Source of the DNA: a bacterium
GTDB taxonomy: Bacteria > UBA8248
Direction of reading: 5' to 3'
Assembly (NCBI GenBank): GCA_965219955.1
Contig: OZ244799.1
Location: 1,696,001-1,760,000, forward strand
DNA: 64,000 bases
Shown one piece after another: positions 13,026-64,000 of the stretch. Under the pieces are notes generated by a model, which did no database searches, was not told the origin of the DNA, and saw nothing but the letters and a program-made list of their open reading frames with translations. The stretch's first letter is position 1. Each line of letters opens with the position of its first letter. The translations under genes were made by a program, and so were the position numbers.

Positions 13026-13028
13026 GCT

Positions 13029-13919: not shown

Positions 13920-13980
13920 TCTTGCTTTTTTCTTGCAATTATTTTGGGCAGGAGAAGCGCAACTTCAACAATAACAAAAA

Positions 13981-14709: not shown

Positions 14710-14711
14710 GT

Positions 14712-16514: not shown

Positions 16515-16795
16515 GGCCGGAAGAAATCTCTCTGGGAAGGCGAATGGCGCGAATGCCGAAATTGCGTGAGCCTGCTTGAAATTTTATTTCCGCTCTTCGA
16601 TTTCTGGTTACCTGCAAATACAGCAGTAGATAAACCTACTATTTTCACAGGTGATCAGGCGAACACGCTATATCAAACTTGTCCAACCTTGGTCAAATTG
16701 TTTGCCCCCGGATATACACGATGTTAGCATATGCAAAGTGCAGTGTTTCAGTCATTTATGCGTAATCCGCACCCACGATTAGGGCACACTTAACC

Positions 16796-18205: not shown

Positions 18206-18299
18206 CACCTGCACTCAAACCAAAATGATGCAAAAGTCTTTATAGCGAATTTCCTTTGCTTTTAGGTCTAGCTCTCGAAATTCGATTGAAACGTGAATT

Positions 18300-19442: not shown

Positions 19443-19463
19443 AAACGTACCTAACTCTCAAAA

Positions 19464-20399: not shown

Positions 20400-20400
20400 G

Positions 20401-25879: not shown

Positions 25880-25915
25880 AGCCGTTCGTGAACGACCCCG
25901 TGCCGGATCGCTTCC

Positions 25916-26221
25916 CTACGCCGTCGTTTCGCGCGGCTTCACCCGCTTGGCGATCTCGCGGCCCTGCACGACCTCGGCCCGGCGAAGCTCCCAGGTCTTC
26001 TGCAGGTTCATCCAGAGTTCGGGCGTGGTTCCGAAATACCGCGCAAGACGCAGCGTCGTGTCCGCGCTCACGCCACGCCGGCCGTTCAGTATCTTCGTGA
26101 TCCGGTTCACCGGCACGCCCAGCGCCTTCGAGAGCGCATTGGCCGAGAGTTCCAGCGCGCCCATTTCCTCGCGCAGTATCTCGCCCGGATGCACCGGCCT
26201 CATTTTGTTCTTTGCGTTCAT
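25916..26221 (-). CDS. higA: HigA family addiction module antitoxin
   Basis: MRPVHPGEILREE, LRLARYFGTTPELWMNLQ. Confidence 0.92.
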   Translation of the reverse strand: MNAKNKMRPVHPGEILREEMGALELSANALSKALGVPVNRITKILNGRRGVSADTTLRLARYFGTTPELWMNLQKTWELRRAEVVQGREIAKRVKPRETTA

Positions 26222-26233
26222 CGGCCTGTTCCT

Positions 26234-26295
26234 TCAATGGTAGTCCACAATCTCCACGTCATGCGGTCCGTCGTCTTGCAGGCGAAGGAGATTGC
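26234..26295 (-). pseudogene. higB: HigB toxin C-terminal remnant
   Basis: Reads ..ISFA/(frameshift)QDDGPHDVEIVDYH*, the typical HigB C-terminus, just upstream of higA; the 5' part is replaced by a REP. Confidence 0.7.
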
Positions 26296-26326
26296 GTAGG
26301 GGCAGGCCCCTGTGCCTGCCCGCTTT

Positions 26327-26569
26327 TCATGAACGGCCCTTAGCCTCGGCGGCTGAGTCTGTAATGGCGTCCTCCGCCAGTTGTGAGAGATGCCTGCGAA
26401 GCGATTCTTTCGTGTCGAAGGTTTGGAACCGCCCCTCCTCGATGTCGGCGATCCCGACATCGGCTGCCTCGCGCAGGGTCTGCAGGCGAGCCCCGTCCTC
26501 CGCGGCCTGACGCTCCAGGGGGCGGATGCCTCCCTTGAGCAAGCGCGATTTCCCGGTGGGCCGCTTCAT
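26327..26569 (-). pseudogene. ParD-like antitoxin, apparently N-terminally truncated
   Basis: GIRPLERQAAEDGARLQTLREAADVGIADIEEGRF resembles the ParD C-terminal half; the RHH N-terminus is not recognisable. Confidence 0.55.
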
Positions 26570-27111
26570 TTTCGCCCGCCGCTTGAGGGGGAAAACCCGA
26601 TTCTGCCTTTTTTCTCCAGCTCGGGCGGGGCCATGAGTCCCCGGATGGCTTCGAAAACGACCTTGAACTGCTTGTCATATTTCTTCTCCAGAGCGGAGAA
26701 CTTGCGCGCGAGGTCGGCATGGCTCGCCTGCATCCGCCGCAACTCCACGAAGGCGCGCATGATCTCGATGTTCACCCGAATCGCCCGCTCGCTGCGAAGT
26801 ACGCTTGAGAGCATGGCGACCCCCTGTTCGGTGAACGCATAAGGCGGGTAACGCCTGCCGCCCCAACTTGAGGTCACAATTTGTGACCTCAAGTCGCCGA
26901 ACTCCTGTTTCGTAAGCCTGAAGGTGAAATCCGCCGGGAAGCGCTCGATGTTCCTCCTGACGGCTTGCAGGAAGACCTTGGTTTCGACGCCGTAGGGGGC
27001 GGCCAAGTCGGCATCCAGCATGACTTTCAGATCGCGGATGAGATGGATGGACCGTTCGATACGCTCCAGAGGCGCGGAAGGAGCAACTTCGTTCTTTTTC
27101 CTGGTTCCCAC
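26566..27111 (-). CDS. ORF6N domain DNA-binding protein
   Basis: [15 protein letters not shown]...[13 protein letters not shown] and [18 protein letters not shown] motifs. Confidence 0.88.
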
Positions 27112-27429
27112 ACTCCGATCCCCTCAGGTCGTCAGTAACGGCGGCGAACCGACACCCCCTGCGCCTCGGCCCTTTCGAGCGTCGGCATGTCGAGGGTCCT
27201 CATGGAATCGGTACGAACAGACTACGCCAATCGCCTCCAAGGAGCAAAACGATTTCAGCGTGGTTAAATCCCCGGCTCGTAAAGAATTTTTCGTAGGGGT
27301 GTCGAACTTCCCCGAGGAGGGGGAGTTCGAGTGTGTCCGCCCGCCTTGGGGTCGCCGCCTCGTCGTCATTCCGGTGTCAATCCCGATTGAAGAATGAGGG
27401 ACTGAGGAATCCAGAACAGATGAGTTTGA

Positions 27430-27560
27430 TAACGCCTGCCGCTCCAACTTGAGATCACAATTTGTGATCTCAAATCCTCGAATTCGGGTTTTGTGAGTCG
27501 AAAGGTGAAGTCTGCCGGAAAGCGATCAATGTTCCTTTTGACGGACATTAAGAAGACTTC
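27430..27560 (-). pseudogene. Fragment of a second ORF6N gene
   Basis: [43 protein letters not shown] is closely similar to the internal part of 26566-27111 and is flanked by repeats. Confidence 0.75.
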
Positions 27561-27626
27561 GCTGGAATCACTCCTCCCTTGAGGGTCTGTTGAGAAAGCC
27601 CTCCTCGCTCGGAGTTGACCACCGCC

Positions 27627-27770
27627 GTCATTCCGGCGAATGCCGGAATCCAGAACCAAGGCAAGTGAATATCTTATAGCTTTTCATTCCCTCATTGATT
27701 AGGAGACAAGCAGGAAAATCAAAAGGCAAAAAACAAATTCCCTGGATTCCGGCATGCGCCGGAATGACGG
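27627..27770. repeat. GTCATTCCGG...CCGGAATGAC palindromic element
   Basis: GTCATTCCGGCGAATGCCGGAATCCAG ... CTGGATTCCGGCATGCGCCGGAATGAC inverted ends around an AT-rich spacer. Confidence 0.75.
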
Positions 27771-27841
27771 CTATCTGCGATTATTGTTAAGCGGGTAGGA
27801 AGGAAATGAACTTCCGTAAGGGCGGACCTAAGCGTCCGCCT
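27757..27841. repeat. 85-bp composite repeat, copy 2
   Basis: Direct repeat of 25795-25879. Confidence 0.8.
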
Positions 27842-27856
27842 CCGCAGAGGTGCGCG

Positions 27857-28756
27857 TTAGGCCGCCCTATGTCCCTTGCATATCGCACACTGGCATCCCG
27901 CATCCGTGAAGTGACGAACCCCTACCACACGTCTGCGATTTCGATCTGCACGAGTGTATATTTTGTTGAATAGCGTCGTCTCTCCATTCTCCACAAATCG
28001 CCGCAACGAATAGCTGCAGAGGTCGGCGATCTGAACCATGCTGGTCAGTTGACTGTCGACGAACAGTGGCGTCTCGATGATTCTCTCAATCCTCGTCCAA
28101 AGAGTCCCTTTCCGTTGAAATTCCCTCATTAGCTGCGTATGTTTTTTTTCAACGGTTTCGTTGTTGTCATGAACAATAAGTCCATAATTCCTCTGACCAT
28201 TCGTATCATCCGTGTTCTGGAGATATTGCTCGAATCTGGATATTACTTGTTCGAATGCTTGTTCATCCACGGGAGATTGCGCTCGTTGCGGGTCAAAATG
28301 AATCTTGTCTATGCACTCTGCGAACAATCGGGCGAATCCCCATCTTGAAACGCAATCCGCTATCTCGGCTAGAAAATTTTGACGCTCTTGCAAGGTCATG
28401 TGGATGTACGCTTCCGTCTTCGCATAATTTTTTCTGGTTTGATGATAAGTCCGACTGTTGTTTGAATTCTGAAGTCGGAGAAGTTCTCTTGTTCGATATC
28501 TCCGAACTTCCGACTCTCTTTGCATACGACTAAGGTTATTGAAGTTGTTGATTCGAGTTTGCTCCAGGTACTTCCTTAGCATCCATGCAGTGTGTATTTC
28601 CGCATTATCGAGGCCGTATCGACGTTTAATAATCGTAATTTCACGATCTGCGTCCCGCCAGTGCCAGATAGGCAATGAGAGCCCTGCGAGGACGAAGTGA
28701 GATGTGTTGCCAGGAATATCGGAGGTCCCAGATTCATCAATGTAGCAAAGATACAT
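27857..28756 (-). CDS. DUF3800 domain-containing protein
   Basis: N-terminal YIDESG and C-terminal FVDS..TSMVQIADLCSY, characteristic of DUF3800; AGGAGG RBS; low GC. Confidence 0.85.
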   Translation of the reverse strand: MYLCYIDESGTSDIPGNTSHFVLAGLSLPIWHWRDADREITIIKRRYGLDNAEIHTAWMLRKYLEQTRINNFNNLSRMQRESEVRRYRTRELLRLQNSNNSRTYHQTRKNYAKTEAYIHMTLQERQNFLAEIADCVSRWGFARLFAECIDKIHFDPQRAQSPVDEQAFEQVISRFEQYLQNTDDTNGQRNYGLIVHDNNETVEKKHTQLMREFQRKGTLWTRIERIIETPLFVDSQLTSMVQIADLCSYSLRRFVENGETTLFNKIYTRADRNRRRVVGVRHFTDAGCQCAICKGHRAA

Positions 28757-28780
28757 CGAATCAACCTCCTGATTTTGGAC

Positions 28781-28860
28781 AAAAAAAAGCGACTGGGCTT
28801 TTAGGGCCTTAGGCCCTAAGACGAGACGCTTGGCGACTCATCCCAGACGCTGTTTGAGTC
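28781..28860 (-). ncRNA. Putative DUF3800-associated three-way-junction RNA
   Basis: Closing stem AGCG.CTGGG/CCCAG.CGCT, hairpins GATGAG.CGC-CAA-GCG.CTCGTC and TTAGGGCC-TAA-GGCCCTAA, then T8. Confidence 0.65.
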
Positions 28861-28915
28861 CTAATATATCATTACACTGAAGTCAAGCGCAAAATTCACC
28901 CACTTATCATCTCCC

Positions 28916-29650
28916 CTACCCCCCCAACCGCTTATACGCCTCCGTGTCTCTTAACGGGGAGTCGGGCTTGACGCCCTCGGCGGGGGTTTTGCCTTCGGAG
29001 TCTTTCGCGGCGGGGTCGGCGCCGGCGTCGAGCAGGGCCTCGACCACCGCGAGGATGACGCCGTCTTTCGCCGCTGCGTAGTGGAGGGGGGTTCGCACGC
29101 GCTTGTCGCGCACGTCGGGGTTCGCGCCCGCCGCGAGCAGGGCCTTCACGATGGCGGGGGCCGAACTGCGCATCCCCGCCCAGTGCAGCGGCGCCAGGCC
29201 CTTCCTGTCCGGCGTGTTTACCCGGGCGCCCCCCCGCACCAGGATCTCCACGACGTCCGAGGCTTCGCCGAACGCCGCCGCCGCGTGCAGGGCCGTCCAT
29301 CCGAATATGCCCTCCGCGTTCGGGTCGGCGCCGGCGTCCAGCAGGGTCGTCACGATCCCGGGAGCCGCGTTGAACGCCACCGCCGTGTGGAGGGGCGTCG
29401 CTCCTCTCTCATCCGGCGCGTTCGGGTCGGCCCCGGCCCGCGTCAAGGCGGTCAGCACCGCCGGATTATCGGCGAAGCATGCCGCCCAGTGGAGCGGCGT
29501 CCATCCTTTATTGTCCCGCGCGTTCACCTCGGCCCCGGCCTCGAGCAGGCCCCCCACGATTTCGGGGGCGCCGTCGTCCATCACCGCACGGTGCAAGGCC
29601 GTGGCTCCGTCTTCACCCCGCGCGTTCGGGCCGCTTGCTTCCGTAGACAT
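28916..29650 (-). CDS. Ankyrin repeat protein
   Basis: About 6 repeats of G.TPLH.AA......V..LL.AGADPNA. Confidence 0.92.
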   Translation of the reverse strand: MSTEASGPNARGEDGATALHRAVMDDGAPEIVGGLLEAGAEVNARDNKGWTPLHWAACFADNPAVLTALTRAGADPNAPDERGATPLHTAVAFNAAPGIVTTLLDAGADPNAEGIFGWTALHAAAAFGEASDVVEILVRGGARVNTPDRKGLAPLHWAGMRSSAPAIVKALLAAGANPDVRDKRVRTPLHYAAAKDGVILAVVEALLDAGADPAAKDSEGKTPAEGVKPDSPLRDTEAYKRLGG

Positions 29651-33919: not shown

Positions 33920-33978
33920 GTAGGGACAGGCCTCCGTGCCTGTCCTGACGAAGGACAACCACGGAGGGTTGTCCCTAC
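33920..33978. repeat. GTAG-type REP doublet
   Basis: GTAGGGACAGGCCTCCGTGCCTGTCCTGACGAAGGACAACCACGGAGGGTTGTCCCTAC, one mismatch to 55450-55508. Confidence 0.85.
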
Positions 33979-46222: not shown

Positions 46223-46386
46223 GGGGCTGTTGAAAAAGTCCTCTCAAGCGGTGGGGATAAGATGGTTTTGTAGGGACAACCCTCCGTGGTTGTCCTTTGC
46301 GGGATGGTTGCCGTCAGGACAGGCACGGAGGCCTGTCCCTACGGCGAACAATCTCGAAGGTCGGATAGGGCTTTTTCAACGACCCC
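46223..46386. mobile_element. MITE-like element carrying a REP doublet
   Basis: Inverted ends GGGGCTGTTGAAAAAGTCC / GGGCTTTTTCAACGACCCC enclose the REP doublet at 46270-46342. Confidence 0.65.
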
Positions 46387-52699: not shown

Positions 52700-53308
52700 A
52701 TGAGCCAGATGATCGAAATCGTAAAACCCACCTCTTTCGTCCGCGCGGGCGACCACCCCCTGGCGGAGCGGCCCGAAGACCTGGGGGGTCTCAAAGTCGG
52801 CTTTTTCCACAACAACAAGCCCAACGCCGACGTCCTTCTCGAGCGGATCGAGGAGTTGTTCGCCCAGGAGGACGAGACGCTGCGCTTCATCCGGTGGGGA
52901 AAGCCGAACCCCACCCTGCCCGAGGATCGCATCGAGGAATTCATCGCACAGGTGGACGTCGCCGTCTGCGCGGTGGGGGACTGAGGGAGCTGCACGTCAT
53001 GGAGTATCCATGACTCGGTGGAGATGGAAAAAGCGGGCGTTCCGACGGCCACGTTCTGCTCCAGTGAATTCTCGGCCCTGGGCGCGAACGAGAGAACGGC
53101 CTTGGGGATGCCCGGCCTCCCGATAGTCGTCGTGGCGCACCCGGTGGGCGGCATCGCGCCCGACCAGGCGCGCGCCCTGGGCGACGGCGCGGCGGGAGAG
53201 GTTCGGCGCATCCTCACGGGCGATGCCGAATCGCTCAGAAAAGAATACCGGGAGCGCGAATACGTCCCGCCCCGCAAGACGGTGCGCCACAAGGCGCTCT
53301 TCGCATAG
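52700..53308 (+). CDS. UGSC-family selenoprotein (Sec at codon 95, TGA 52982-52984)
   Basis: The ORFs ending at 52984 and starting at 53018 are in the same frame; readthrough gives AVGD-U-GSCTSWSIHD (UxxC); a hairpin begins 11 nt after the TGA. Confidence 0.85.
52993..53020 (+). promoter_or_regulatory. Bacterial SECIS-like element
   Basis: Perfect 8-bp stem GTCATGGA-GTA-TCCATGAC with a G-starting loop, extended by CAC/GTG. Confidence 0.75.
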
Positions 53309-53320
53309 GCGGGCTTCGGT

Positions 53321-54397
53321 GTGAATGACCACTCCCAGGAAAATCTCGCGTTCGAGAACGAACGCGTGAAGGTTCGCGACACGCCCGAGGCGATGGCGCG
53401 CCTGCTCGAAGCCCGGGGCTGGGGCGATGGTCTGCCCGTCGTTCCCCCCACGCCCGAGCGCGTCGCCCGGATGGTGGAGGGCGCAGGGCTCGCGCCCGAT
53501 GCGGAAATCGGCCTCATGCCCCCACGTCAGGGAGTCATCTCCACCGAGGCCCTCGCCGTGAACGCCGTGATGGCCGGCTGTCATCCGTCTTACATGCCCG
53601 TTCTGGTGGCCGCGGTCCGGGCGGTGCTGGCGCCCGAGTTCTCGCTCCACGCGATTCAGGCGACGACCCACCCGGTGGCGCCCCTCATCATCGTGAACGG
53701 CCCCATCGTCGGGGAAATCGGACTGAACGCGGAATATGGGTGCTTCGCCCCCGGAAACCGGGCGAACGCGACGATTGGCCGCGCGATGCGCCTGGCGCTC
53801 CTGAACGTGGGCGGCGCGAGCCCGGGCGTACTGGACCGCGCCACCCAAGGATCACCTGCGAAATACGCGTTCTGCATCGCCGAGAACGAGGCGGCCTCCC
53901 CCTGGGAGCCGCTGCATGTGGAGCGCGGCTTTGCGCCCGATGAGAGCGCCGTGACGCTCGTGGGCTGCGAGGGCCCCCACAACGTCAACGACCACGTGAG
54001 CCACACGGCGGAGGGCATCCTCGCCACCGCCGCCGACACGATGTCCATCATGGGGAGCAACAATTTCTACCTGCGCGGAGAACCCGTTCTCGCCTTGGGC
54101 CCCGAGCACGCGGCGACCATCGCGGGAGACGGCCTCACGAAGGCGGACGTGAAGGAGAGAATTTTCGAACTCGCCCGTAAGCCCGTGCGCCGGCTCAGGC
54201 GCGGCGCCATGTGGGGAATGCAGACCTGGGGCGAGGAAATAGCCGAACACGAAGACGACGATGATTTCGAGATCCCGCTTCTGGACGAACCGGACGATTT
54301 GCTCCTCATCGTGACGGGCGGGGCCGGCAAGCATTCGTGCTACATGCCCACCTTCGGCCCCACGCGCTCGGTGACCGGGCGAATCGATATGGTCTGA
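53321..54397 (+). CDS. Conserved hypothetical protein, UGSC-associated family
   Basis: GWGDGLPVVPPTPERV, AVNAVMAGC, NRANATIGRA and ENE..SPWEPLHVERG motifs; 12 nt downstream of the UGSC gene. Confidence 0.75.
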   Translation: MNDHSQENLAFENERVKVRDTPEAMARLLEARGWGDGLPVVPPTPERVARMVEGAGLAPDAEIGLMPPRQGVISTEALAVNAVMAGCHPSYMPVLVAAVRAVLAPEFSLHAIQATTHPVAPLIIVNGPIVGEIGLNAEYGCFAPGNRANATIGRAMRLALLNVGGASPGVLDRATQGSPAKYAFCIAENEAASPWEPLHVERGFAPDESAVTLVGCEGPHNVNDHVSHTAEGILATAADTMSIMGSNNFYLRGEPVLALGPEHAATIAGDGLTKADVKERIFELARKPVRRLRRGAMWGMQTWGEEIAEHEDDDDFEIPLLDEPDDLLLIVTGGAGKHSCYMPTFGPTRSVTGRIDMV

Positions 54398-54492
54398 GGA
54401 AAGCAGGAGTTCCCGACATCAGAGAAAGACGCCGCTATCGAATCGGTCGGAGATGACCCTCAAAAGGGAGGGTATCGCCGCGAATCGCTCTT

Positions 54493-55101
54493 TCAGGAAG
54501 CCTGCGAAACCGGGACCGGCGGCGGCAAAAGAGCCTCGGCCTGCTCCACGACGGATTCCAGAAAGCTCTCATCGGGGGAGACGCGCGACAGCACCCTGAG
54601 ACCCAGAAAAAGACCAAGCAAAGATTTTGCAGTCTGCTCCGGATCGACTTCAGGAGAAATCTCGCCGTTGGCCTGGCCCCGCTCGATGGAAGCGCGGAGA
54701 AACTCCGCCATGCCGGCGAACGCGCCGGCCACGAACGAAGCCACCTCCGGATCGTGCGCACCAAGCTCCAGGGCAACGTTTACTTCGAGGCAGCCGTCGC
54801 TCGAACCACTATCTATCACCTCCGAAGCGGCGGACTCGAACACGGACAGCACCGCCTTTCTCGGCGAGGCATGTTTTTCGAGCTCCTTGATCGGCGCCTC
54901 GCGATAGAGTTGGTCGTAGCGGCGAAGCGCCCGCAAGAACATCTCGCGCTTATCTCCAAACGCGTGGTACAAGCTCCCTCTGAAAAGGCCTGTGGCGTTC
55001 TCGAGATCTCGAATCGACGTTGCCGAATAGCCGTAACGCCAGAATTGGTTCATCGCTTTCATCAAAACCTCGTCCATATCGAACTTCGGCAGTTTTCCCA
55101 T
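54493..55101 (-). CDS. TetR/AcrR family transcriptional regulator
   Basis: FWRYGYSATSIRDLE.ATGL.RGSLYHAFGDK HTH; GCL motif in the C-terminal domain. Confidence 0.9.
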   Translation of the reverse strand: MGKLPKFDMDEVLMKAMNQFWRYGYSATSIRDLENATGLFRGSLYHAFGDKREMFLRALRRYDQLYREAPIKELEKHASPRKAVLSVFESAASEVIDSGSSDGCLEVNVALELGAHDPEVASFVAGAFAGMAEFLRASIERGQANGEISPEVDPEQTAKSLLGLFLGLRVLSRVSPDESFLESVVEQAEALLPPPVPVSQAS

Positions 55102-55245
55102 GGGTCCTCTCTCCATTTGCCTGGTGAAGCGCAAATTCCCTCGCATGTCACATCCCGGTTTGGCGGATCCGATCATAAAATCGAACAAATATCGCCCCAG
55201 ATTAGCACACGAAAAAGCCCATTTCACGAAAAATCGCACCCTGTC

Positions 55246-55856
55246 GGCGCTGTTGAAAACCACCCCCTGTCCCCCCTTTTCAAAGGGATAAAGGCAATGG
55301 ACCTCGACGAGGGGGGAGGTGGATGGAAAAACCCCTCTGACAAGGGGCTGTTGAAAAAGTCCTTCTTGTCAGGGGACAAAGGCACCCCCCCCTACCCCCC
55401 CTTGTCAGGGTTGTTGAAAAAGTCCTGATGAACGGAGATCGCAGGTTTTGTAGGGACAGGCCTCAGTGCCTGTCCTGACGAAGGACAACCACGGAGGGTT
55501 GTCCCTACAACCGCCAATCCTACTTTATCCGGCTTTTTCAACAGCCCCTTGTCAGGGGTCAAACGCGAGTGATGAACGAGCGTTTGCATAAGCCATTGAC
55601 GAGAAACACATCGTCTTGCAAAACCTCCCTCTTCGGTCGGTTTTGACCCCTGAAAAGGGGGGGTAGGGGGGGGCCTTTCAACAAATGAGGGGGCAATCGA
55701 ACCGACCGAGGAGGCGCCGCCCCGTAGGGACAGGCCTCCATGCCTGTCCTGATTCGAACCATCCTGCAAAAAGGACAACCACGGAGGGCGGGACAACCCC
55801 AAAGGGTTGTCCCTACAACCGCAACACCGACTGACGAGGGGTTTTTCAAAACCCCG
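55246..55856. repeat. Dense nested cluster of MITE-like ends, CCCCCCTACCCCCC hairpins and REP doublets
   Basis: Several (C/T)TGTTGAAAA and TTTTTCAA ends; REP doublets at 55450-55508 and about 55724-55816. Confidence 0.8.
55408..55547. mobile_element. MITE-like element with REP cargo and a target-site duplication
   Basis: GGGTTGTTGAAAAAGTCC / GGCTTTTTCAACAGCCC flanked on both sides by CTTGTCA (55401-55407 and 55548-55554). Confidence 0.7.
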
Positions 55857-55945
55857 TTCGCGTTGCCTCGGGATCGGCCCCGTGTTAGATTCCCTTCTCT
55901 GGGGAAGATGACCTTTCTTTTGATGAGATGCGAGGGGGAGAACCC

Positions 55946-56338
55946 ATGGCGAAACAACAAATCAACTCCGATAAGGTAAAGCCGGTCGCCGCGTATTCGA
56001 CGGGCTGGAAGGTATCGAACGGACATCTCATCATGCTGGCGGGACAGGTGGCGGTCGACGTGGACGGCAACACCGTCGGAGGCGACGACATCAGGGGCCA
56101 GACCCGGCAGGTGTACGAGAACATCAAGTTCGCGCTGGAGGCGACGGGCGCCGGGATGGCGGACATCATCCGCCTGACCGTCTATATCACCGACCCTGCG
56201 AATGTCCCGGGGTGCATGGAGGTGCGGCAGACATATTTCAGCGAGCCGTACCCGGCGAGTACGCTCCTGGTCGTGAGCGGCCTGGCGAAACCCGAATGGC
56301 TCATCGAGATAGACGCGATCGCCTTCGTGGAAGACTAG
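55946..56338 (+). CDS. Rid (YjgF/YER057c/UK114) family protein
   Basis: LAGQV, QTRQVYENI, PAST and LIEIDAIA motifs. Confidence 0.88.
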   Translation: MAKQQINSDKVKPVAAYSTGWKVSNGHLIMLAGQVAVDVDGNTVGGDDIRGQTRQVYENIKFALEATGAGMADIIRLTVYITDPANVPGCMEVRQTYFSEPYPASTLLVVSGLAKPEWLIEIDAIAFVED

Positions 56339-56342
56339 AAGC

Positions 56343-57197
56343 ATGAGCAGCCGCAGGTCCATCGCCGAAACGCTCGTGCTCGTCAAGGGAGGCGGCGACC
56401 TCGCCACCGGCGTGGCGCATCGTCTGCACCGCGCGGGTTTTCCGGTCGTGATCACCGAAATCGAAAACCCCACCATGGTGAGGCGCACCGTCTCCTTCGC
56501 CGAGTGTCTGTATGCGGATGGGTGGAGAGTGGAGGGCGTGACCTCCGCCCGCGCGGCCGGCGAGACGCCCGCGGAAAAAGCAGAGAACGCGCGCGCCATT
56601 CTTGATGCCGGTTCGGTTCCGGTGATGGTGGATCCGCGCGCCGAGGTGGTCGCTCATCTTCGGCCCGCCGTCGTGGTCGATGCGATTCTCGCGAAGCGAA
56701 ACCTCGGCACGCGCATCGACGACGCGGAGGTCGTTATCGGCCTGGGGCCGGGATTCACGGCGGGCGTCGATTGCCACGCCGTGGTCGAGACCTCCCGGGG
56801 ACACGACCTGGGACGTGTGATCCTGGAGGGCGCCGCGAAGCCGAACACCGGCGTTCCGGGCCCGATCGGCGGCTACACCACCGAGCGGCTGCTGCGGGCG
56901 CCCAAAGCCGGCGTATTCACCTCCATCGCCAAAATCGGCGACGCGGTGCGCGCCGGAGAGGCCGTCGCCCGCGTGGACGACGCCGAAGTGACCTCCGCCA
57001 TCGACGGCGTTTTGCGCGGGCTCCTGAGAGACGGCATCGAGGTGAGCGCGGGCTTCAAGGTGGGCGACGTCGACCCGAGGGCCGAGCCCGCCCATTGCCA
57101 CACGATATCGGATAAATCGCGCGCCATCGGCGGCGGCGCGCTCGAGGCCATCATGATGTTCCTGTTCGGCGTTTCAGCCATGGAGTATGCGAATTGA
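56343..57197 (+). CDS. yqeB: Selenium-dependent molybdenum cofactor biosynthesis protein YqeB
   Basis: VKGGGDLATGVA, VDAILAKRNLGT, IGLGPGF, VETSRGHDLG, KVGDVDPR and ISDKSRAIGGG motifs. Confidence 0.9.
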   Translation: MSSRRSIAETLVLVKGGGDLATGVAHRLHRAGFPVVITEIENPTMVRRTVSFAECLYADGWRVEGVTSARAAGETPAEKAENARAILDAGSVPVMVDPRAEVVAHLRPAVVVDAILAKRNLGTRIDDAEVVIGLGPGFTAGVDCHAVVETSRGHDLGRVILEGAAKPNTGVPGPIGGYTTERLLRAPKAGVFTSIAKIGDAVRAGEAVARVDDAEVTSAIDGVLRGLLRDGIEVSAGFKVGDVDPRAEPAHCHTISDKSRAIGGGALEAIMMFLFGVSAMEYAN

Positions 57198-58078
57198 CTA
57201 CCGAAATATTGAGTGAAACCGTGGAAAACGGCGCCTACCGCATCGGGCGCAGCGAAATCCCCATCAACGAGACCAACGGCAACTCCTTCGTCCCCCCGGC
57301 GCAGTTCTATCTGGCGGCGGGCGACGCGCTCGAGCGAATCGCGTGGGCGGTGAGCAGCAACCTGCCCGTCCTCCTCGTGGGGGAGACCGGCGTCGGCAAG
57401 ACCCTCTCGGTGCGCCACCTCGCCCACATGACCAACAACGGCTTCCGGCGCGTGAACCTGAACGGCATGACCACGGTCGATGAGTTCGTGGGCAAGCTGA
57501 TGATCAACGAACAGGGCACCTACTGGGTGAACGGCATCCTGGTCGACGCCATGGAATCGGGCGACTGGCTGCTCATCGACGAGATCAACGCGTGCCTGCC
57601 GGAAATCGCCTTTTGCCTGCACAGCCTGCTCGACGACGACCGCATGATCGTCTTGTCCGAATACGACGGACGCATCGTCAAGCCCCACCCGAACTTCCGG
57701 CTCTTCGCCAGCATGAACCCGCACGAGGACCGCAGATACGGCGGCACCAAGCCCCTGAACGAGGCGCTTCTGGACCGCTTCCCGGTCACCGTGAAGATGA
57801 ACTACCTGCCTTTCGAGGCGGAAGTCGAGGTCATCATGCAGCAGAGCGGGAACCACGATGAGGAACTCGTCAAGCGCATGGTGCGCGTGGGCCACGACGT
57901 GCGCGAGGCCATGCAGAACGAAAAGGTGTTCTGCACGTTCAGCACCCGGCGCCTCATCGACTGGGCGCGCATGGCGGCGCAGTTCGACCCCATGGAAGCC
58001 GCCGTCTCGACCATTTTCAGCAAGGTCAACTCTTTCGACGCCAAAGTGCTCGAGGACATCGTAGACAACCACTTCTAG
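57194..58078 (+). CDS. MoxR-clade AAA+ ATPase (CbbQ/NirQ/NorQ/CobS-like)
   Basis: Walker A GETGVGKT, Walker B LLIDE, ASMNP, LNEALLDRF and C-terminal FSTRRLIDW; TTG start overlaps the yqeB stop. Confidence 0.88.
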   Translation: MTTEILSETVENGAYRIGRSEIPINETNGNSFVPPAQFYLAAGDALERIAWAVSSNLPVLLVGETGVGKTLSVRHLAHMTNNGFRRVNLNGMTTVDEFVGKLMINEQGTYWVNGILVDAMESGDWLLIDEINACLPEIAFCLHSLLDDDRMIVLSEYDGRIVKPHPNFRLFASMNPHEDRRYGGTKPLNEALLDRFPVTVKMNYLPFEAEVEVIMQQSGNHDEELVKRMVRVGHDVREAMQNEKVFCTFSTRRLIDWARMAAQFDPMEAAVSTIFSKVNSFDAKVLEDIVDNHF

Positions 58079-58092
58079 CCGGGAGATGAGGC

Positions 58093-59865
58093 ATGGAACG
58101 CCGACGCGCCCGTCTCGAAGCGCTCGCGCAGGTGACCGCGCACGATTACGACCTCGCCCTGAACTTCGGCCCCAAGGCGAAGAACGGCGAAGACGCCATT
58201 CACGTCGAGGACCCCGAACAGACCCTGGCGCGCCTGGGCGGCGGACTCAACGACGAGCACGTCTTGAGATTCCAGAAGGGCATGACGCTCATCGAGGTGG
58301 CCCACAAAATCCACGGCACGTTCCCCTGGGCGGGCCGCGCCGCGCTCGCGAACCGCGAGAGGCCGGGCTTGTTTCACATCTGGCACACGCTCGAGGACGC
58401 GCGGTGCGAAAACCGCCTCGCGGAATCGCTGCCCGGCACCAAGAAGAATTTCCGCGCCTTCATCCTCCCGGCCATCGAGGCGGCCCAGCGCAACCAGATG
58501 AGCGGGCAACTCCCCCTGTTTCTCCAGATCCAGTGGGGAATCTACCTCGCCGGGATCGGGCAGACGCCCGGCGTCCCCTCCTCCCGGCCCGGGGATTTGC
58601 CCGCGGCCTGGTTCGATACCGCCGTCGTTCAGATTTTTCACAGGCTCATCCCGCTGGTAGACCGCGCCTGCGCCGCCGATGACCCCAAAACCGCCTTCGA
58701 TTGCGCCAACGAGATTTATGACGCCATCCAGCGGTATCTCACCGAAGATCAACTCTCCCGGATGAGCGACGATCAGGATTTATCGGAAATTCCCGAGGAA
58801 ATTCTGCAGAAGATCGAGAGCCAGAACCTGGAGGGCGACGATGACGAAGCGCTCGAGATGCTCCACCCCGAGGCGGCGGAGGAAATCGACGAGGAAGACG
58901 TGGGCGAGCAGGTCGAACTCAGCCCCGAGGAACTCGCGGCGCTCGGGCACTGGGCCGCGCCCTGGTTCGAACTCGAAGGGAACAAGAAGGAAATCCACCC
59001 CACCGCCGAGCACCCTGATGAGCGCACCATCGTGTTGCCGCCCGAGGGCAAGGCCGAGGAATACGCGGCGGTCATCGACAACGCGGGCAGCCACATCAAG
59101 GTGCTGGTGTGGAAGCTCATGCAGATCATCCAGGAGAGAACCTATACCCGGTTCAGCGGCTCGCACCGTTCGGGCAAGCTGAACCTCCCGAAGCTGTGGA
59201 AGCAGCGGCTGGGGAAATTCCATCTCTTCCACCGGAAAGAAGAGCCCGAGAAGCTCGACGTGTGCTTCACGCTGCTCGTGGACGAGAGCGGCAGCATGAA
59301 CCGCGAGTCGAAGTACATGGCCGCCAGGGAAGCGACCATATTCTTCGCCGAGGCGCTCGACCGCCTCGACGTGCCCTTCGAGGTCATCGGCTATTCCACC
59401 GAGAGTTCGGAAGCCGCCATGGCGGCGGCCCTCGGCCACATCCCCGCGTTCAAGTTCCGGCACATCCGGCACTCGCCGCTCCAGCACCGCATCTACAAGG
59501 GTTTCGAGGATCATTTCGCCCAGGTCAAGAACAGGCTCGTCAACATCTACCCGCGCTTCAACAACTGGGACGAGGAACACCTGCTCTTCGCCTACCGCAG
59601 GCTCATCCAGCGGCCCGAGGAGGAGAAAATCATCATCATCACCTCCGACGGCCAGCCCAACGGGGACGCGACCCACCTCGTGAACACGGTGAACCGGCTC
59701 CAGAAGCTCGGGGTGCGCGTCATCGGCGTCGGCGTGGTGGACCCCTTCGTGGAGCAGATCTACCCCAACCACATCGTGGTGCAGGACCTCTCCCAGCTTT
59801 CCACCGAACTCGTGAACATCCTGAGGCGCGAATTGCTCGGCGGCCTGGAGAGCCGCAATTGGTAG
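58093..59865 (+). CDS. vWA domain protein (CobT/NorD/CbbO-like AAA+ partner)
   Basis: MIDAS DESGSM and TSDGQP, an acidic linker, and an N-terminal LEDARCE motif. Confidence 0.85.
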   Translation: MERRRARLEALAQVTAHDYDLALNFGPKAKNGEDAIHVEDPEQTLARLGGGLNDEHVLRFQKGMTLIEVAHKIHGTFPWAGRAALANRERPGLFHIWHTLEDARCENRLAESLPGTKKNFRAFILPAIEAAQRNQMSGQLPLFLQIQWGIYLAGIGQTPGVPSSRPGDLPAAWFDTAVVQIFHRLIPLVDRACAADDPKTAFDCANEIYDAIQRYLTEDQLSRMSDDQDLSEIPEEILQKIESQNLEGDDDEALEMLHPEAAEEIDEEDVGEQVELSPEELAALGHWAAPWFELEGNKKEIHPTAEHPDERTIVLPPEGKAEEYAAVIDNAGSHIKVLVWKLMQIIQERTYTRFSGSHRSGKLNLPKLWKQRLGKFHLFHRKEEPEKLDVCFTLLVDESGSMNRESKYMAAREATIFFAEALDRLDVPFEVIGYSTESSEAAMAAALGHIPAFKFRHIRHSPLQHRIYKGFEDHFAQVKNRLVNIYPRFNNWDEEHLLFAYRRLIQRPEEEKIIIITSDGQPNGDATHLVNTVNRLQKLGVRVIGVGVVDPFVEQIYPNHIVVQDLSQLSTELVNILRRELLGGLESRNW

Positions 59866-60686
59866 CGGAAGACGACGTCGTTCGCTCCCTCGGGGTCGCG
59901 CCGGGCCAGAGCGTCGCGGCGGTCGGCGGAGGCGGAAAGACGAGCCTGCTGACGGCCATCGCCAGGCAGTTTCATGCGCAAAGCGGAAAACCGGCGATTC
60001 TCACGACGACGACGAAGATTTTCGCGCCGCTCCCCGAGGAAGGGCTCGGGCTCGCCCTGGGCGACATCGATACGCTCTCCAAAAACCTCCGCCCCTACAC
60101 GGGCGCGTGCGGCGTCTCGTGGTTCGCCCGCAGCCGCGAGGGAAAAGCGCCGGTTCCGGGCCGGGAGAGCGAGCGGCGCATGAAGCTGAGTGGATTTGCG
60201 CCCTCAGAAATCGAACGCCTGAAGCTCGCCGACGCCCTCACGCTCATCGAGGCGGACGGCGCGAGGAGACTGCCCATCAAGGCGCCGGGGCCTGATGAAC
60301 CCGTATTGCCCGAAGGCCTCGACGCCGTATTGGGCGTCGTGGGACTCGACGCGCTGGGCGCGCCATTGAGGGAGTCGCACGTTTTTCGCCCCGAGGCGCT
60401 CGCTCGAATCTGCGGCCTGGGGTCCGGTGAGGAGATAACGGCCCAAGCCGTCGGGAGATTGTGCGCGCATCCTGATGGTCTTTTTCACAAGGCGGAGGCC
60501 GGCGCGCGCAAATGGATTATCTTGAACAAGGCCGATCTGGAAACCTCGCTGGAAAAACTCGAAAAAACGGCCTATACTATATGGGAGTTGGCCGGAAAGC
60601 CTCATGGTCCGGCGGACGGCATCCTCTTCACATCTTGTATGAACAACGAATGTGAAGTATTCATGCGGATCGCATCGGATACGTAG
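59859..60686 (+). CDS. yqeC: Selenium cofactor biosynthesis protein YqeC
   Basis: VGGGGKTSL, LTTTTKI, IEADGARRLPIKAP...EPV and ILNKAD motifs; TTG start with a GGAG RBS overlapping the vWA stop. Confidence 0.85.
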   Translation: MVAEDDVVRSLGVAPGQSVAAVGGGGKTSLLTAIARQFHAQSGKPAILTTTTKIFAPLPEEGLGLALGDIDTLSKNLRPYTGACGVSWFARSREGKAPVPGRESERRMKLSGFAPSEIERLKLADALTLIEADGARRLPIKAPGPDEPVLPEGLDAVLGVVGLDALGAPLRESHVFRPEALARICGLGSGEEITAQAVGRLCAHPDGLFHKAEAGARKWIILNKADLETSLEKLEKTAYTIWELAGKPHGPADGILFTSCMNNECEVFMRIASDT

Positions 60687-60717
60687 CGATCATCACTTCA
60701 CGTAGGCGGAGCAAGCA

Positions 60718-61863
60718 ATGAGCAAGGACGTTTTCAGGGAAATGGCGAAGCTCAAGGGAGACGGCCAGAGCGGCGCGCTCGCCACCGTCGTGGCCCGCAA
60801 GGGGTCCGCGCCCATGAGCGGCGATGCGAAGATGCTCGTGCGTGAGGACGGCAGCACGGAAGGTACCGTCGGCGGCGGTTGTCTCGAGGCCGAGGTGTGG
60901 GAAACCGCGATGAGCGTCCTGGAAACGGGCGAACCCGAAAAGCTCCGCTTCGACCTCACCCAGCAGGAAGCCGAAGACAGCGGCCACATCTGCGGCGGCG
61001 TGGTGGAGATACTCGTGGAGCCGTTCCAGGCGTTTCAGGCGGATTTGCTCGATGAGATCAACCGCATCAGGAACCATGGCGGCAGCGCGGCGCTGGCGAC
61101 CATCGTTCAGCCGGGCGATCTCGACGTCCCGGCGCCGGAAGCAAGAAAAATGCTGTTCAGGCGCGACGGCAGCGCCTTGGGCGAGATTCCCAACTATTCA
61201 ACGGAGATATGGGCGGAGAGCACCCAAATCATCCGCAACGGCAGCCCCACGCTCCTGCAGTTCAACACGGACGCCGCACGGGCAGGCGGGAAAAGATCCA
61301 CGCTCGAAGAAGCTACGGAAATTTTCGTCGAACCCATATCCGGCCAGCCCCTCGTCTATATCTTCGGCGGCGGGCACGTGTCGTTCTGCGTCGCGCAGGC
61401 GGCCTATCTCGCTGGCTTCAGGGTCTCGATCGTCGAGGACAGGCCCTCGTTCGCCAACAAGGAGCGCTTCCCGATGGCGGAGTCGTTCTTCGTCGGCGAA
61501 TTCCCCGATATTTTCGAGAAAATCCCGGTTGACGAGTCCGACTACCTGGCCATCATCACGCGGGGCCATTCGAACGACGAGGTCGTCCTCGAATGGGCGA
61601 TGGAGACGCCCGCGCGCTATATCGGGATGATCGGCTCCAAGAGCAAGGTGCTGCTCACCTATCGCCACCTCCAGGACAAGGGCTACGACAGAGGCGAGCT
61701 CATCGAGCGCGTCCACGCGCCCATAGGTCTCGACATCGGCGCCGATACGCCGGGCGAGATAGGCGTCGCCATCGTCGCCGAACTCATCAGGCATCGCCGT
61801 CAGGGCGAGGCGCAGAGTGAGGGCACGGGCAGCAAACGGGTGCAACTCAGAAGAAAATCTTAA
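60718..61863 (+). CDS. xdhC: XdhC/CoxF family molybdenum cofactor insertion chaperone
   Basis: GSAP, GTVGGGCLE, ICGG, FGGGHV, YIGMIGS and HAPIGLDIGA.TP.EI motifs. Confidence 0.9.
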   Translation: MSKDVFREMAKLKGDGQSGALATVVARKGSAPMSGDAKMLVREDGSTEGTVGGGCLEAEVWETAMSVLETGEPEKLRFDLTQQEAEDSGHICGGVVEILVEPFQAFQADLLDEINRIRNHGGSAALATIVQPGDLDVPAPEARKMLFRRDGSALGEIPNYSTEIWAESTQIIRNGSPTLLQFNTDAARAGGKRSTLEEATEIFVEPISGQPLVYIFGGGHVSFCVAQAAYLAGFRVSIVEDRPSFANKERFPMAESFFVGEFPDIFEKIPVDESDYLAIITRGHSNDEVVLEWAMETPARYIGMIGSKSKVLLTYRHLQDKGYDRGELIERVHAPIGLDIGADTPGEIGVAIVAELIRHRRQGEAQSEGTGSKRVQLRRKS

Positions 61864-61944
61864 AGTTCCACGCCGCAATCGGCCCATACGAGGGGGCCGC
61901 ACTCCTTATTACCCGGGACCCGAAGCGAGCATATCGCAAGAGTC

Positions 61945-62700
61945 ATGGGTTATCTCCGCAGGCTCATCGGCGCAGCGACGGACTTCCTCATCCCCCCGAA
62001 GTGCCTCTTGTGTTCGGCTTCGATGGAGATCGGCGCTCCCCATGCGATATGCGCCCCCTGCACGGAAGCCTTCGAGCGCTTTGAACCCCCCTGGTGTCCC
62101 AGGTGCGGCAATCCTTTCCACTCCCTGACCACCCTCACCCATTCCCCGGCCCACGTCTGCGCGGATTGTCTGGAAAGCGGGCATCACTACGACATGGCCC
62201 GCGCCGTCGGCGCGTATGAGGACTCGCTGCGCGAAGCGGTCCACCTCTTCAAGTTCCAGGGCTTCACGAAGCTCGCGCGCGAGTTCGCACCCCATCTCGC
62301 AAAACTCGCGGCAGAGGAATTTGGTACCGGAGAAAACGCCCGAAACGTATTGGTGACTCACGTGCCCATCGACCCCGCCCGCTGGAGGACGAGAGGCTTC
62401 GATCAGGCGATGCTGCTCGCCCTCATGACGGCGGAACGTCTGGGCGTCCCCCACATGGACCTCCTCGAGCGCGCGAAGGCGACCCGCTCGCAGACGGGCC
62501 TCTCCGCAAGGGAGCGGCGCCGCAACATGCGGGGCGTCTTCCGGGTTCGCGCAAACAAGGCGAGTCCGGAAATCGAGGCGGCCACCTGCATTCTGGTAGA
62601 CGACGTCGTCACGACCGGCTCGACCGCCTCGGCCTGCGCCCGAGAACTCAAAAAAGCGGGCGCCGAAGCCGTGCACCTGCTGACGATATGCCGATCTTGA
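61945..62700 (+). CDS. comF: ComF family protein (double zinc ribbon plus PRTase)
   Basis: Four CxxC pairs, RGFDQA and LVDDVVTTGST. Confidence 0.9.
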   Translation: MGYLRRLIGAATDFLIPPKCLLCSASMEIGAPHAICAPCTEAFERFEPPWCPRCGNPFHSLTTLTHSPAHVCADCLESGHHYDMARAVGAYEDSLREAVHLFKFQGFTKLAREFAPHLAKLAAEEFGTGENARNVLVTHVPIDPARWRTRGFDQAMLLALMTAERLGVPHMDLLERAKATRSQTGLSARERRRNMRGVFRVRANKASPEIEAATCILVDDVVTTGSTASACARELKKAGAEAVHLLTICRS

Positions 62701-62974
62701 GAGGCGCTTTTGTAGCGCGACCTGTCCCTACGGGTTAGGGCATCAAAAAGTCACAAGCAAAAATAATGAAATCAAGCAAATATGACGCAAGCCGTAAAAA
62801 CTATTTCGTTGACAACAAATAAGTTGACAACAAATTTGTTGCATGATTGCATTCGACGGATTTGTCGAACCGTAAGGAGATTTGCGCAAGGAAATCTTAT
62901 GAAATCATCCACTGTTCGCATGAGAGTTTTGCGAAGAATACGTTTGAGTTCCAGGGAAAGATAAGGGATATAAA

Positions 62975-63802
62975 ATGCAAGATCAGTACGTGGGTGATGT
63001 AGGAGATTTCGGCAAATATGGTTTGCTTCGCGCAATCACACAACCCAGCATCACGAAGACAGGCGGATCAGAAACCTTGAGTCTCGGCGTTGTCTGGTAC
63101 CGCCATCCCGACGAACAAAACAACGATGGGAGCAAAATTAATTATCTTGGGACCTCCAAGCAAGCTAACTTTCGGAGTTGTGATCCGGAACTGTATGACT
63201 GCCTAGCTAAGATCGTAAGATATGACCCCTGCACAAAGACCGCGAAGGGCAACAGGAAGATATCAAGAATTGAGAATAGCAAGACACTCGGCTCCAAAAC
63301 CCGTTTTTGGGGCAAGACATGTCCTAGTGGAGACCCTGTTGCTCGCAAAAAATGGCACCGAGAAACATTGGAAAATTTGAAGAAATGCGACTTAGTATTC
63401 CTAGACCCAGATAATGGCCTGAGTCTGAAATGCGACCAACAGTCTGTCAGTGGAAAACATGCGTATCTCGCGGAGGTGCTGAGCTTTGTTTCTCAAGGAA
63501 ACGCAGTAATTTTCTACCATCACCCTGACAGGAGAAAAAATACTCTCACCGACAAATCGTCACACGACAGGCAAATTGAAGACCTTGCAAAATATATTGC
63601 TCGCAAATTAGATAACAATCATCATGTGTCGGCTTTTCGCTATCGAAGAGGCACTTCTCGAGCATTTTTCGTCATTTGGCCCGTAGCTCGGGGTGAAGTG
63701 TTCAAGCCCCGAATTCAAGCAGTAGGAAATGGTTTATGGAGCAAGAAAAACCATTTCGAACTTACCGTGACTTCTTTACGTGGGAAAAAACGCACAAAGT
63801 AA
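62975..63802 (+). CDS. Hypothetical protein, low GC
   Basis: 275-aa ORF; MQDQYVGDVGDFGKYGLLR and DLVFLDPDNGL resemble a methyltransferase-like conserved hypothetical family. Confidence 0.7.
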   Translation: MQDQYVGDVGDFGKYGLLRAITQPSITKTGGSETLSLGVVWYRHPDEQNNDGSKINYLGTSKQANFRSCDPELYDCLAKIVRYDPCTKTAKGNRKISRIENSKTLGSKTRFWGKTCPSGDPVARKKWHRETLENLKKCDLVFLDPDNGLSLKCDQQSVSGKHAYLAEVLSFVSQGNAVIFYHHPDRRKNTLTDKSSHDRQIEDLAKYIARKLDNNHHVSAFRYRRGTSRAFFVIWPVARGEVFKPRIQAVGNGLWSKKNHFELTVTSLRGKKRTK

Positions 63803-63820
63803 CAAAAACGCAGGAGTTTA

Positions 63821-63845
63821 GGCGGACACAGAGGTCCGCCCCTAC
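63821..63845. repeat. Single GTAG-type REP
   Basis: GGCGGACACAGAGGTCCGCCCCTAC, the same type as 25854-25879 and 27816-27840. Confidence 0.75.
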
Positions 63846-63891
63846 GACTAAATATGAGACCTGTGTTGCCAGCGTTACTCCAGAGTTTCAC

Positions 63892-64000
63892 TTACCCTCC
63901 GTCGTTTACAACCATCCTCGCCGCGAGGATGAGCGCATCGGCCATGCTGGAGGGGTCGGCAATACCCTGCCCGGCGATGGGGAATCCCGTCCCGTGCTCG
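63892..64000 (-). CDS. pdxA: PdxA family (4-hydroxythreonine-4-phosphate dehydrogenase), C-terminal end
   Basis: EHGTGFPIAGQGIADPSSMADALILAARM* resembles the PdxA C-terminal DHGTAFDIAG.G.A motif. Confidence 0.75.
   Translation of the reverse strand, partial: EHGTGFPIAGQGIADPSSMADALILAARMVVNDGG

Follow-up and report, generated by a model that had tools for sequence, protein, structure and literature searches.

An AAA+/VWA gene pair set between yqeB and yqeC as a candidate chaperone for xanthine-oxidase-family molybdenum hydroxylases

Pairs formed by an AAA+ ATPase and a protein with a VWA domain (vWA protein) have been described for several client enzymes. CobS/CobT act on CobN, with CobT docking on this substrate-holding subunit (10.64898/2026.07.21.739949), NorQ/NorD act on nitric oxide (NO) reductase (PMC9976466, PMC13036017), CbbQ/CbbO act on Rubisco (PMC4660213) and CoxD/CoxE act on carbon monoxide (CO) dehydrogenase (PMC4240915). 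As the cited accounts present them, these systems follow a common logic: a VWA adaptor, gripped by a hexameric motor, docks on the client and drives a metal or cofactor step. In the literature searched (PMC4240915, PMC2997495), CoxD/CoxE is the only described AAA+/VWA pair for an enzyme of the xanthine-oxidase family. Here we analyze a 64-kb stretch of a bacterial genome (contig OZ244799.1, positions 1,696,001 to 1,760,000; "the window" is this whole stretch of 64,000 nucleotides), in which an AAA+/VWA pair lies in an operon with yqeB, yqeC and xdhC.

The installation of the catalytically essential selenium on the molybdenum cofactor has been called the least understood route of selenium use, and YqeB and YqeC are described as having no known mechanism (PMC11448449). 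The same source reports that yqeB is needed for selD-dependent growth of C. difficile on xanthine and urate, that yqeC is largely dispensable there, and that the selenium of these hydroxylases is a labile cofactor. In the classical loci of E. coli, C. difficile, Enterococcus and haloarchaea, YqeB and YqeC cluster with an XdhC-family gene (PMC2276186), as they do in the window.

The operon and its AAA+/VWA pair

The operon consists of six co-directional genes on the plus strand, as read from the listing of open reading frames (ORFs) and their translations:

55928/55946-56338, plus strand, rid (RidA/YjgF family; PF01042 Ribonuc_L-PSP, 93.3 bits)
56343-57197, plus strand, yqeB (TIGR03309, 367.7 bits against an equivalog cut-off of 220)
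57194-58078, plus strand, AAA+ ATPase of the CobS/NorQ/CbbQ (AAA_5) branch (AAA_5, 100.5 bits against a cut-off of 22; CbbQ_C, 40.5 bits)
58093-59865, plus strand, CobT-related vWA protein (CobT_C, 68.1 bits; VWA, 29.6 bits)
59859-60686, plus strand, yqeC with a TTG start and the P-loop GGGGKT (TIGR03172, 162.7 bits against a cut-off of 73.05; PF19842, 120 bits)
60718-61863, plus strand, xdhC-family molybdenum cofactor chaperone gene (XdhC_CoxI, 92.8 bits; XdhC_C, 126.4 bits)

The order rid-yqeB-AAA+-vWA-yqeC-xdhC and the gaps of 4, -4, 14, -7 and 31 nt, as given in a first-pass annotation of this DNA, were confirmed from the ORF listing and the nucleotides themselves. Four nucleotides separate the rid TAG from the yqeB ATG. 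The yqeB TGA and the AAA+ TTG share the tetranucleotide TTGA, with a GGAG 8 nt 5' of the AAA+ start, and the 14 nt between the AAA+ TAG and the vWA ATG also contain a GGAG. The vWA TAG and the yqeC TTG overlap by 7 nt, and xdhC follows yqeC after 31 nt. The yqeB/AAA+ and vWA/yqeC overlaps suggest translational coupling. YqeB and YqeC both exceed the NCBIfam equivalog cut-offs for the selenium-dependent molybdenum hydroxylase trait, for which YqeB is both marker and required factor; H251 and C252 of YqeB are invariant in 18 sequences, and the yqeC product is by its sequence matches a predicted selenium cofactor biosynthesis protein. The xdhC product contains both domains expected of its family, the XdhC_CoxI N-domain and the XdhC_C Rossmann domain.

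The AAA+ protein carries the Walker A motif GETGVGKT (residues 63-70) and the Walker B pair D129-E130, invariant in 20 sequences. Among solved structures in the PDB, its best matches were the AAA domains of midasin, followed by CobS (99.5 bits), NorQ (about 80 bits), CbbQ (79 bits) and a MoxR-like protein (46.6 bits). We compared the pair with references translated from plasmid records (pHCG3, the Sagittula nor cluster and a Rhizobium cobS-cobT pair), with the names CoxD, CoxE and CoxF assigned by gene order after coxMSL; the pHCG3 record itself lists a MoxR family ATPase, a VWA domain-containing protein and an XdhC family protein. With hhalign, the AAA+ protein scored 176 with CobS, 143 with NorQ (99.4%) and 60 with CoxD. 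An assignment of CoxD to the AAA_3 type was not borne out by Pfam (AAA_5, 49.5 bits; AAA_3, 25.8 bits). In a separate search of a representative library of 1.84 billion proteins, the best 150 of 12102 matches to the AAA+ protein were almost all midasin-like giants of 2000-7500 aa with 6-11 matching stretches each, which parallels the midasin matches in the PDB.

Three parts make up the vWA protein: the N-domain, a linker rich in acidic residues at about 225-285, and a VWA domain of the CobT_C type. Its residues D397-x-S399-x-S401, T436 and D519 are invariant in 27 sequences and are read as the MIDAS (an adhesion site dependent on a metal ion) by comparison with the CobT MIDAS (10.64898/2026.07.21.739949). 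Alignment of the family profile to chain 9UKA_G of CobT covered profile positions 92-575 (E 4e-27), a range that takes in the N-domain motif, the acidic linker and the VWA domain; the homology to CobT thus extends over the greater part of the protein. Against the plasmid references, hhalign probabilities were 98.8% for CobT, 64% for NorD and 2.8% for CoxE, and the protein had no match to VWA_CoxE (PF05762), where the true pHCG3 CoxE scores 287.9 bits. A language-model look-alike search with the N-terminal part of a 68%-identical homologue returned a CobT-domain cluster at 0.95, which we take as a lead only. Just 49 relatives of comparable length, most of them from metagenome bins of Nitrospinota or Tectomicrobia, turned up in a collection of 5.8 billion proteins; longer fused forms of the protein were not found, which is weak evidence.

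CobS/CobT of the aerobic cobaltochelatase CobNST are thus the best solved relatives of the window pair, and the likeness extends to an adaptor N-domain with a common W/F..E/D-A-R-x-E motif, the acidic linker and a CobT_C-type VWA domain with a MIDAS. However, the window AAA+ protein has a CbbQ_C domain, which was not found in the reference CobS at E<=0.001, and has no match to CobS_N (PF12556), where the reference CobS scores 60 bits. Both proteins fall far under the equivalog cut-offs, with 88.1 bits against 558.55 for CobS (TIGR01650) and 59 bits against 759.05 for CobT (TIGR01651), and the CobT N-domain model PF06213 reached only 16 bits in the vWA protein (cut-off 26.1; true CobT, 313 bits). 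There is no CobN near the pair, and no CobN-type Pfam match was found among the 48 window ORFs scanned; the neighbors are instead yqeB, yqeC and xdhC or, in related loci, xanthine-oxidase-family genes. On these differences we rejected a reading as true CobS/CobT. Because the pair matches CobS/CobT best yet fails the equivalog cut-offs, CobS_N and the CobT N-domain, we assign it by sequence to a separate family inside the CobS/CobT-NorQ/CbbQ branch. Neither NCBIfam nor Pfam has a dedicated model for either protein, and names in the source databases are generic ("MoxR family ATPase", "VWA domain-containing protein", "CobT-related"), with some members called "cobaltochelatase CobS".

The hhalign scores and Pfam matches agree with the first-pass annotation, which had called the pair CbbQ/NorQ/CobS- and CobT-like rather than CoxD/CoxE-like. 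CoxD/CoxE resemble the pair in gene order: in pHCG3 the ATPase, the VWA protein and the XdhC-family protein follow coxMSL, and in the Chloroflexota relatives described below the pair likewise lies directly 3' of structural genes. The window itself lacks structural genes 5' of the pair (none among the ORFs scanned), and its XdhC-family gene comes after yqeC. The two systems are not orthologous, as seen from the CoxE probability and from the AAA+ scores of 60 with CoxD against 176 with CobS; neither window protein was found by tblastn (E<=1e-3) in the first 50 kb of pHCG3, and the window pair implies no copper site. NorQ and CbbQ share the Pfam architecture of the window ATPase, AAA_5 plus CbbQ_C, as well as the motor-adaptor-client logic outlined above. 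NorD matches the vWA protein in the VWA core only (E 6e-5), and the clients (iron (FeB) insertion into NO reductase for NorQ/NorD, Rubisco activation for CbbQ/CbbO) and neighborhoods of these systems differ from those of the window pair.

Orthologous loci and their neighborhoods

With an alignment of 27 of these vWA relatives we scanned one genome per species; the results given here are for the best 80 loci of 129 relatives. Neighbors were called by tblastn with the window proteins and proteins of two related loci, and Pfam and NCBIfam were run on selected loci. Three groups, A (38 loci), B (5 loci) and C (26 loci), together comprise 69 orthologous loci, and the 11 loci of group D are more distant. 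Wherever a locus of groups A, B or C contains both the AAA+ and the vWA gene, the two are adjacent.

Group A has vWA proteins 52-98% identical to that of the window and comes from Nitrospinota or Tectimicrobiota where a phylum is named. Here yqeB lies directly 5' of the AAA+ gene in 33/33 loci with flank, and yqeC then xdhC lie downstream in 36/36. The arrangement exceeds chance, because the same order recurs in all flank-bearing loci of this Nitrospinota type, down to 52% vWA identity. The rid gene appears facultative, as only 25/33 of the loci having upstream flank contain it.

In group B (vWA 40-46% identical) the order yqeB-AAA-vWA is found in 5/5 loci, and the YqeB proteins of the two loci scanned (L039 and L042) score 376-378 bits. 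No yqeC or xdhC was found in the group B DNA examined. An ornithine-cyclodeaminase-family gene follows the pair in 4/5 loci, and genes for the xanthine-oxidase flavin (FAD) and large subunits lie 3.4-4.6 kb downstream in 2/5. Taken together, groups A and B have yqeB directly 5' of the AAA+ gene in 38/38 loci having flank. The concern raised with the first-pass annotation, that orthologues might occur mostly away from yqeBC and xdhC, was not borne out, with 43/69 loci belonging to these two groups. As a separate observation, a molybdopterin-oxidoreductase (formate-dehydrogenase-like) gene at 13530-15876 of L039 is present in two or three pieces between the ornithine-cyclodeaminase-like and xanthine-oxidase-family genes; a frameshift, a selenocysteine (Sec) codon or an assembly error could explain the split.

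Group C consists of 26 Chloroflexota loci, in which the vWA protein is 33-38% identical over its full length and the AAA+ protein 62-68% identical. The AAA+ gene comes after xanthine-oxidase-family genes in 21/22 loci containing it. The full set of four, encoding an FAD subunit, a 2Fe-2S subunit and two molybdopterin subunits of half size, occurs in 17/17 loci with at least 7.6 kb of upstream DNA. An xdhC gene lies 5.8-7.2 kb downstream in 12/20 loci with enough DNA. The large subunit is split as in nicotinate dehydrogenase, and its N-terminal half matches 3HRD_A best, at 233 bits over its whole 425 residues (next match, 164 bits). Nicotinate dehydrogenase carries a Mo=Se site. The surroundings resemble sugar-acid or inositol-type catabolism, with KduI/IolB, xylose-isomerase-like barrels, aldehyde and 2-hydroxyacid dehydrogenases and a transketolase-like protein. 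In L043 (4349-18882) and other Chloroflexota loci, a conserved gene order begins with KduI/IolB, a dihydrodipicolinate-synthase (DHDPS)-like protein, an alcohol dehydrogenase (ADH), a metallo-beta-lactamase-fold protein and a 3-hydroxyisobutyrate-dehydrogenase-like protein. It continues with the four-subunit nicotinate-dehydrogenase-like enzyme, AAA+, vWA, aldehyde dehydrogenase, 2-hydroxyacid dehydrogenase, a TIM-barrel protein, the transketolase-like protein and xdhC.

Group D vWA proteins are 24-29% identical, in the VWA domain only, and tblastn found no molybdenum-related neighbor in the 11 loci. Of the Bacillota loci scanned, two (L072 and L078) have genes of plasmid or phage type around them (PcfK, PcfJ, YqaJ, RecD-like) and L073 has an AAA+/CobT_C pair and a glutamine amidotransferase alone; the archaeal L069 adjoins nucleotidyltransferase/HEPN genes. 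Since these loci have no molybdenum-related neighbor, it is the orthologous family, and not CobT-like proteins generally, that is tied to molybdo-hydroxylase genes. The nearest plasmid-borne AAA+ protein (Burkholderia, 36% identity) also had no molybdenum-related annotated neighbors.

Candidate functions of the pair

We interpret the pair, with somewhat better than even confidence, as a motor-adaptor chaperone of the CobS/CobT, NorQ/NorD and CbbQ/CbbO kind whose clients would be xanthine-oxidase-family molybdenum hydroxylases; in this window, it is best read as having been recruited into the selenium branch. By analogy with the solved relatives, a hexameric ATPase would grip the vWA adaptor, whose MIDAS-bearing VWA domain and N-domain would dock on the folded apo-enzyme. 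ATP hydrolysis would open the active-site funnel of the enzyme, and XdhC would then deliver the molybdenum cofactor, or the terminal ligand would be finished in place. In the window and in the related loci of Nitrospinota type, the selenium step would fall to YqeB and YqeC and transport of the cofactor to XdhC, with the client enzyme encoded elsewhere in the genome. The cofactor handled in these loci is most likely the selenium-bearing one, given that the pair is built into a yqeB-yqeC-xdhC operon. It is from such analogy and context that we infer complex formation, the client, the order of steps and selenium specificity.

The organism itself appears to use selenium, because a UGSC-family selenoprotein gene (52700-53308, plus strand) has an in-frame TGA at 52982-52984 in its UGSC motif (NF041046, 135.7 bits against 125); Sec decoding, and hence SelD, would be implied. 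This gene lies 3 kb 5' of the operon, between two acyl-CoA dehydrogenase genes and an unassigned 358-aa ORF, in a block that is syntenic in many related loci. In groups A and B it is yqeB that is linked more tightly to the pair, which agrees with yqeB being needed and yqeC largely dispensable in C. difficile. The first-pass annotation had proposed a chaperone for selenium-dependent hydroxylases. Its chaperone part, for xanthine-oxidase-family enzymes, gains independent comparative support from the neighborhoods of the orthologues, the 26 Chloroflexota loci among them. Selenium specificity is not a trait of the family's neighborhoods as a whole.

Several observations weigh against the chaperone reading or against its selenium part. 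No client hydroxylase gene was found among the ORFs scanned in the 64-kb window, where a Pfam scan of 36 further ORFs gave no xanthine-oxidase-family enzyme, CobN or selD, and no xanthine-oxidase-family gene lies within 10 kb in any of the 38 group A loci. These loci are often close relatives, many of them near-identical, and amount to far fewer than 33 independent observations. In group C, no yqeB or yqeC lies within 10 kb in the 26 loci and no selenium gene was found among 35 ORFs scanned in four of them, so the pair does not need neighboring selenium genes; one locus (L047) has no xanthine-oxidase gene in its 1149 nt of upstream DNA. The common denominator of the family is the molybdo-hydroxylase and not selenium. 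The tree of the AAA+ proteins, described below, was a quick search with saturated reference branches.

As a reverse control, a tblastn search with the window YqeB against plasmid records gave 26 records. In the four diverse loci that we examined (Collinsella, Peptoclostridium, Haloterrigena and Thermomicrobium), neither annotation nor tblastn at E<=1e-3 showed a match to the pair within 8-9 kb (0/4). The Thermomicrobium gene is a weaker YqeB match; the other three loci have yqeB with yqeC and XdhC-family genes, to which Peptoclostridium adds hydroxylase subunit genes and mocA, and Haloterrigena hydroxylase subunit genes and selD. The window differs from such classical loci in that the pair and yqeC separate yqeB from xdhC and no selD or hydroxylase gene is nearby. 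No AAA+/vWA pair is present among the rows of Table 1 of PMC2276186 that we compared. We conclude that the pair is a lineage-specific addition and not a general part of the YqeB system.

A quick maximum-likelihood tree of 39 AAA+ proteins of groups A-C and seven references (CoxD, two NorQ, GvpN, CobS and two others) placed all 39 on one side, apart from the references (SH-aLRT, the Shimodaira-Hasegawa-like approximate likelihood ratio test, 83). Groups C and B each formed a clade (100 and 99) and were sisters (98); the representative-library search with the AAA+ protein gave no usable outgroups. With yqeB directly upstream in group A and in group B alike, parsimony on a weakly supported root would favor an ancestral yqeB-AAA-vWA order and a later move of the pair beside the structural genes in Chloroflexota. 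A bolder form of the proposal, which we regard as doubtful, would make yqeB-AAA+-vWA an ancestral triad and the first ATP-driven machine that installs or re-installs labile selenium. The adaptor would then dock YqeB and the XdhC-bound cofactor onto the opened enzyme, and the Chloroflexota enzymes would also be selenium enzymes, with yqeB, yqeC and selD encoded elsewhere.

Other functions would use the same parts differently. The family and context evidence for a chaperone would equally suit a reactivase, comparable to CbbQ/CbbO acting on inhibited Rubisco, in which the pair reopens mature hydroxylases short of their terminal sulfur or selenium and XdhC, YqeB and YqeC restore the ligand. Selenium has been described as labile in these enzymes (PMC11448449) and CbbQ is among the solved relatives, at 79 bits. 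Repair and first assembly are not separated by sequence, but the solved relatives that score closest (CobS/CobT and NorQ/NorD) work as insertion machines, and we consider a reactivase rather improbable. We give a similarly low probability to a machine that works at the level of the cofactor, acting on XdhC- or YqeB-bound cofactor, much as CobS/CobT drive CobN, and not on the apo-enzyme, and installing selenium before insertion. The position of yqeB directly 5' of the AAA+ gene wherever flank is available in groups A and B, a linkage ancestral by parsimony on the quick tree, would fit such a role, as would the homology of the vWA protein to CobT, which docks on CobN (10.64898/2026.07.21.739949), and the fusion or adjacency of YqeB to XdhC in other lineages (PMC2276186; plasmid loci). 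The 26 Chloroflexota loci speak against it: there the pair comes after the structural genes, yqeB is absent nearby, and xdhC lies about 6 kb away or was not found.

It is very improbable that the pair has no role in molybdenum enzymes and sits here by chance, as a true cobaltochelatase CobS/CobT or a general MoxR-type chaperone. Some members are indeed named "cobaltochelatase CobS" or "CobT-related", and CobS and CobT are the best NCBIfam and PDB matches. However, the equivalog scores (88 against 559 and 59 against 759), the missing CobS_N and the lack of a CobN-type match in the scanned window ORFs speak against a cobaltochelatase, and a molybdenum-related neighborhood is kept across two phyla while the other neighbors change.

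The first-pass annotation knew of no description of this arrangement, and our full-text searches of a literature library likewise found no publication that links an AAA+/VWA pair to yqeB/yqeC or to nicotinate-dehydrogenase-like enzymes; they turned up CoxD/CoxE for CO dehydrogenase only. In this operon, yqeB, yqeC and xdhC are tied to a proposed ATP-driven motor-adaptor, the solved relatives of which place cobalt in corrin and iron in NO reductase. This yields a hypothesis that is concrete and can be tested, and a definite set of genes with which to attempt reconstitution. If the chaperone reading is true, then quite apart from selenium the xanthine-oxidase family would have, next to CoxD/CoxE, a second AAA+/VWA system not orthologous to the first, and the CobS/CobT lineage would gain a non-tetrapyrrole client. 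The pair could also aid the heterologous expression of molybdo-hydroxylases that are hard to mature.

Accessory genes, leader and other features of the window

The rid frame opens at 55928, and its likely start is the second ATG at 55946, which has the better upstream sequence GGGGGAG; its product scores 74 bits against TIGR00004, under the cut-off of 106. The xdhC product is nearest to NF045664 (XdhC_rel_AOR, "XdhC family aldehyde oxidoreductase maturation factor"), at 309 bits and under the cut-off of 350. With the XdhC-family protein encoded at the coxF position of pHCG3 it shares 29% identity. It has its N-terminal XdhC_CoxI-like domain in tandem, with residues 2-103 and 109-211 both aligning to the N-terminus of the pHCG3 protein. 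Three further features flank the six genes:

54493-55263, minus strand, TetR-family gene, divergent from the operon (TetR Pfam matches)
55264..55927, plus strand, leader of 664 nt, rich in palindromic repeats, separating the TetR-family gene from rid
61945..62700, plus strand, ComF/GntX-family phosphoribosyltransferase gene (DZR_2 and Pribosyltran), 81 nt 3' of xdhC

The ComF gene lies 3' of xdhC in 29/38 Nitrospinota-type loci, several of the remaining loci being cut, and in none of the group B and C neighborhoods; it is probably a conserved neighbor outside the system.

The leader may serve as the promoter region of the operon. It contains direct repeats (D1-D6) and inverted repeats (I1-I13), and has no sigma-70-like or other promoter-like site. 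Terminator-like sites were fewer than in shuffled sequences. No Rfam family matched 54000-64000 at E<=1, and so no molybdenum cofactor (Moco) riboswitch, except for one sub-threshold CRISPR-repeat match within xdhC (61169-61194, plus strand; 27.1 bits against a gathering score of 39), which we take as chance. A 29-nt palindromic intergenic repeat occurs in five copies in the window against 0 expected in shuffles (55450-55478, 55724-55752, 33920-33948, 46314-46342 on the minus strand and 7741-7769 on the minus strand). Two of the copies lie in the leader 5' of rid, among the other direct and inverted repeats. The repeat has the look of a repetitive extragenic palindromic (REP)-type element.

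G+C content is low (0.48-0.53) at about 12000-22000 and at 62000-64000, compared with 0.58-0.67 in the remainder of the window. The first of these stretches carries housekeeping-type genes (rRNA dimethylase, LepA, an HtrA-like protease and an ABC transporter), and the second contains a 275-aa ORF (62975-63802) with no Pfam or NCBIfam family match. On the minus strand at 25900-29650, genes for a helix-turn-helix (HTH) protein, an ORF6N-domain protein, a DUF3800 protein and a 244-aa ankyrin-repeat protein give the region a mobile or symbiosis-like flavor.

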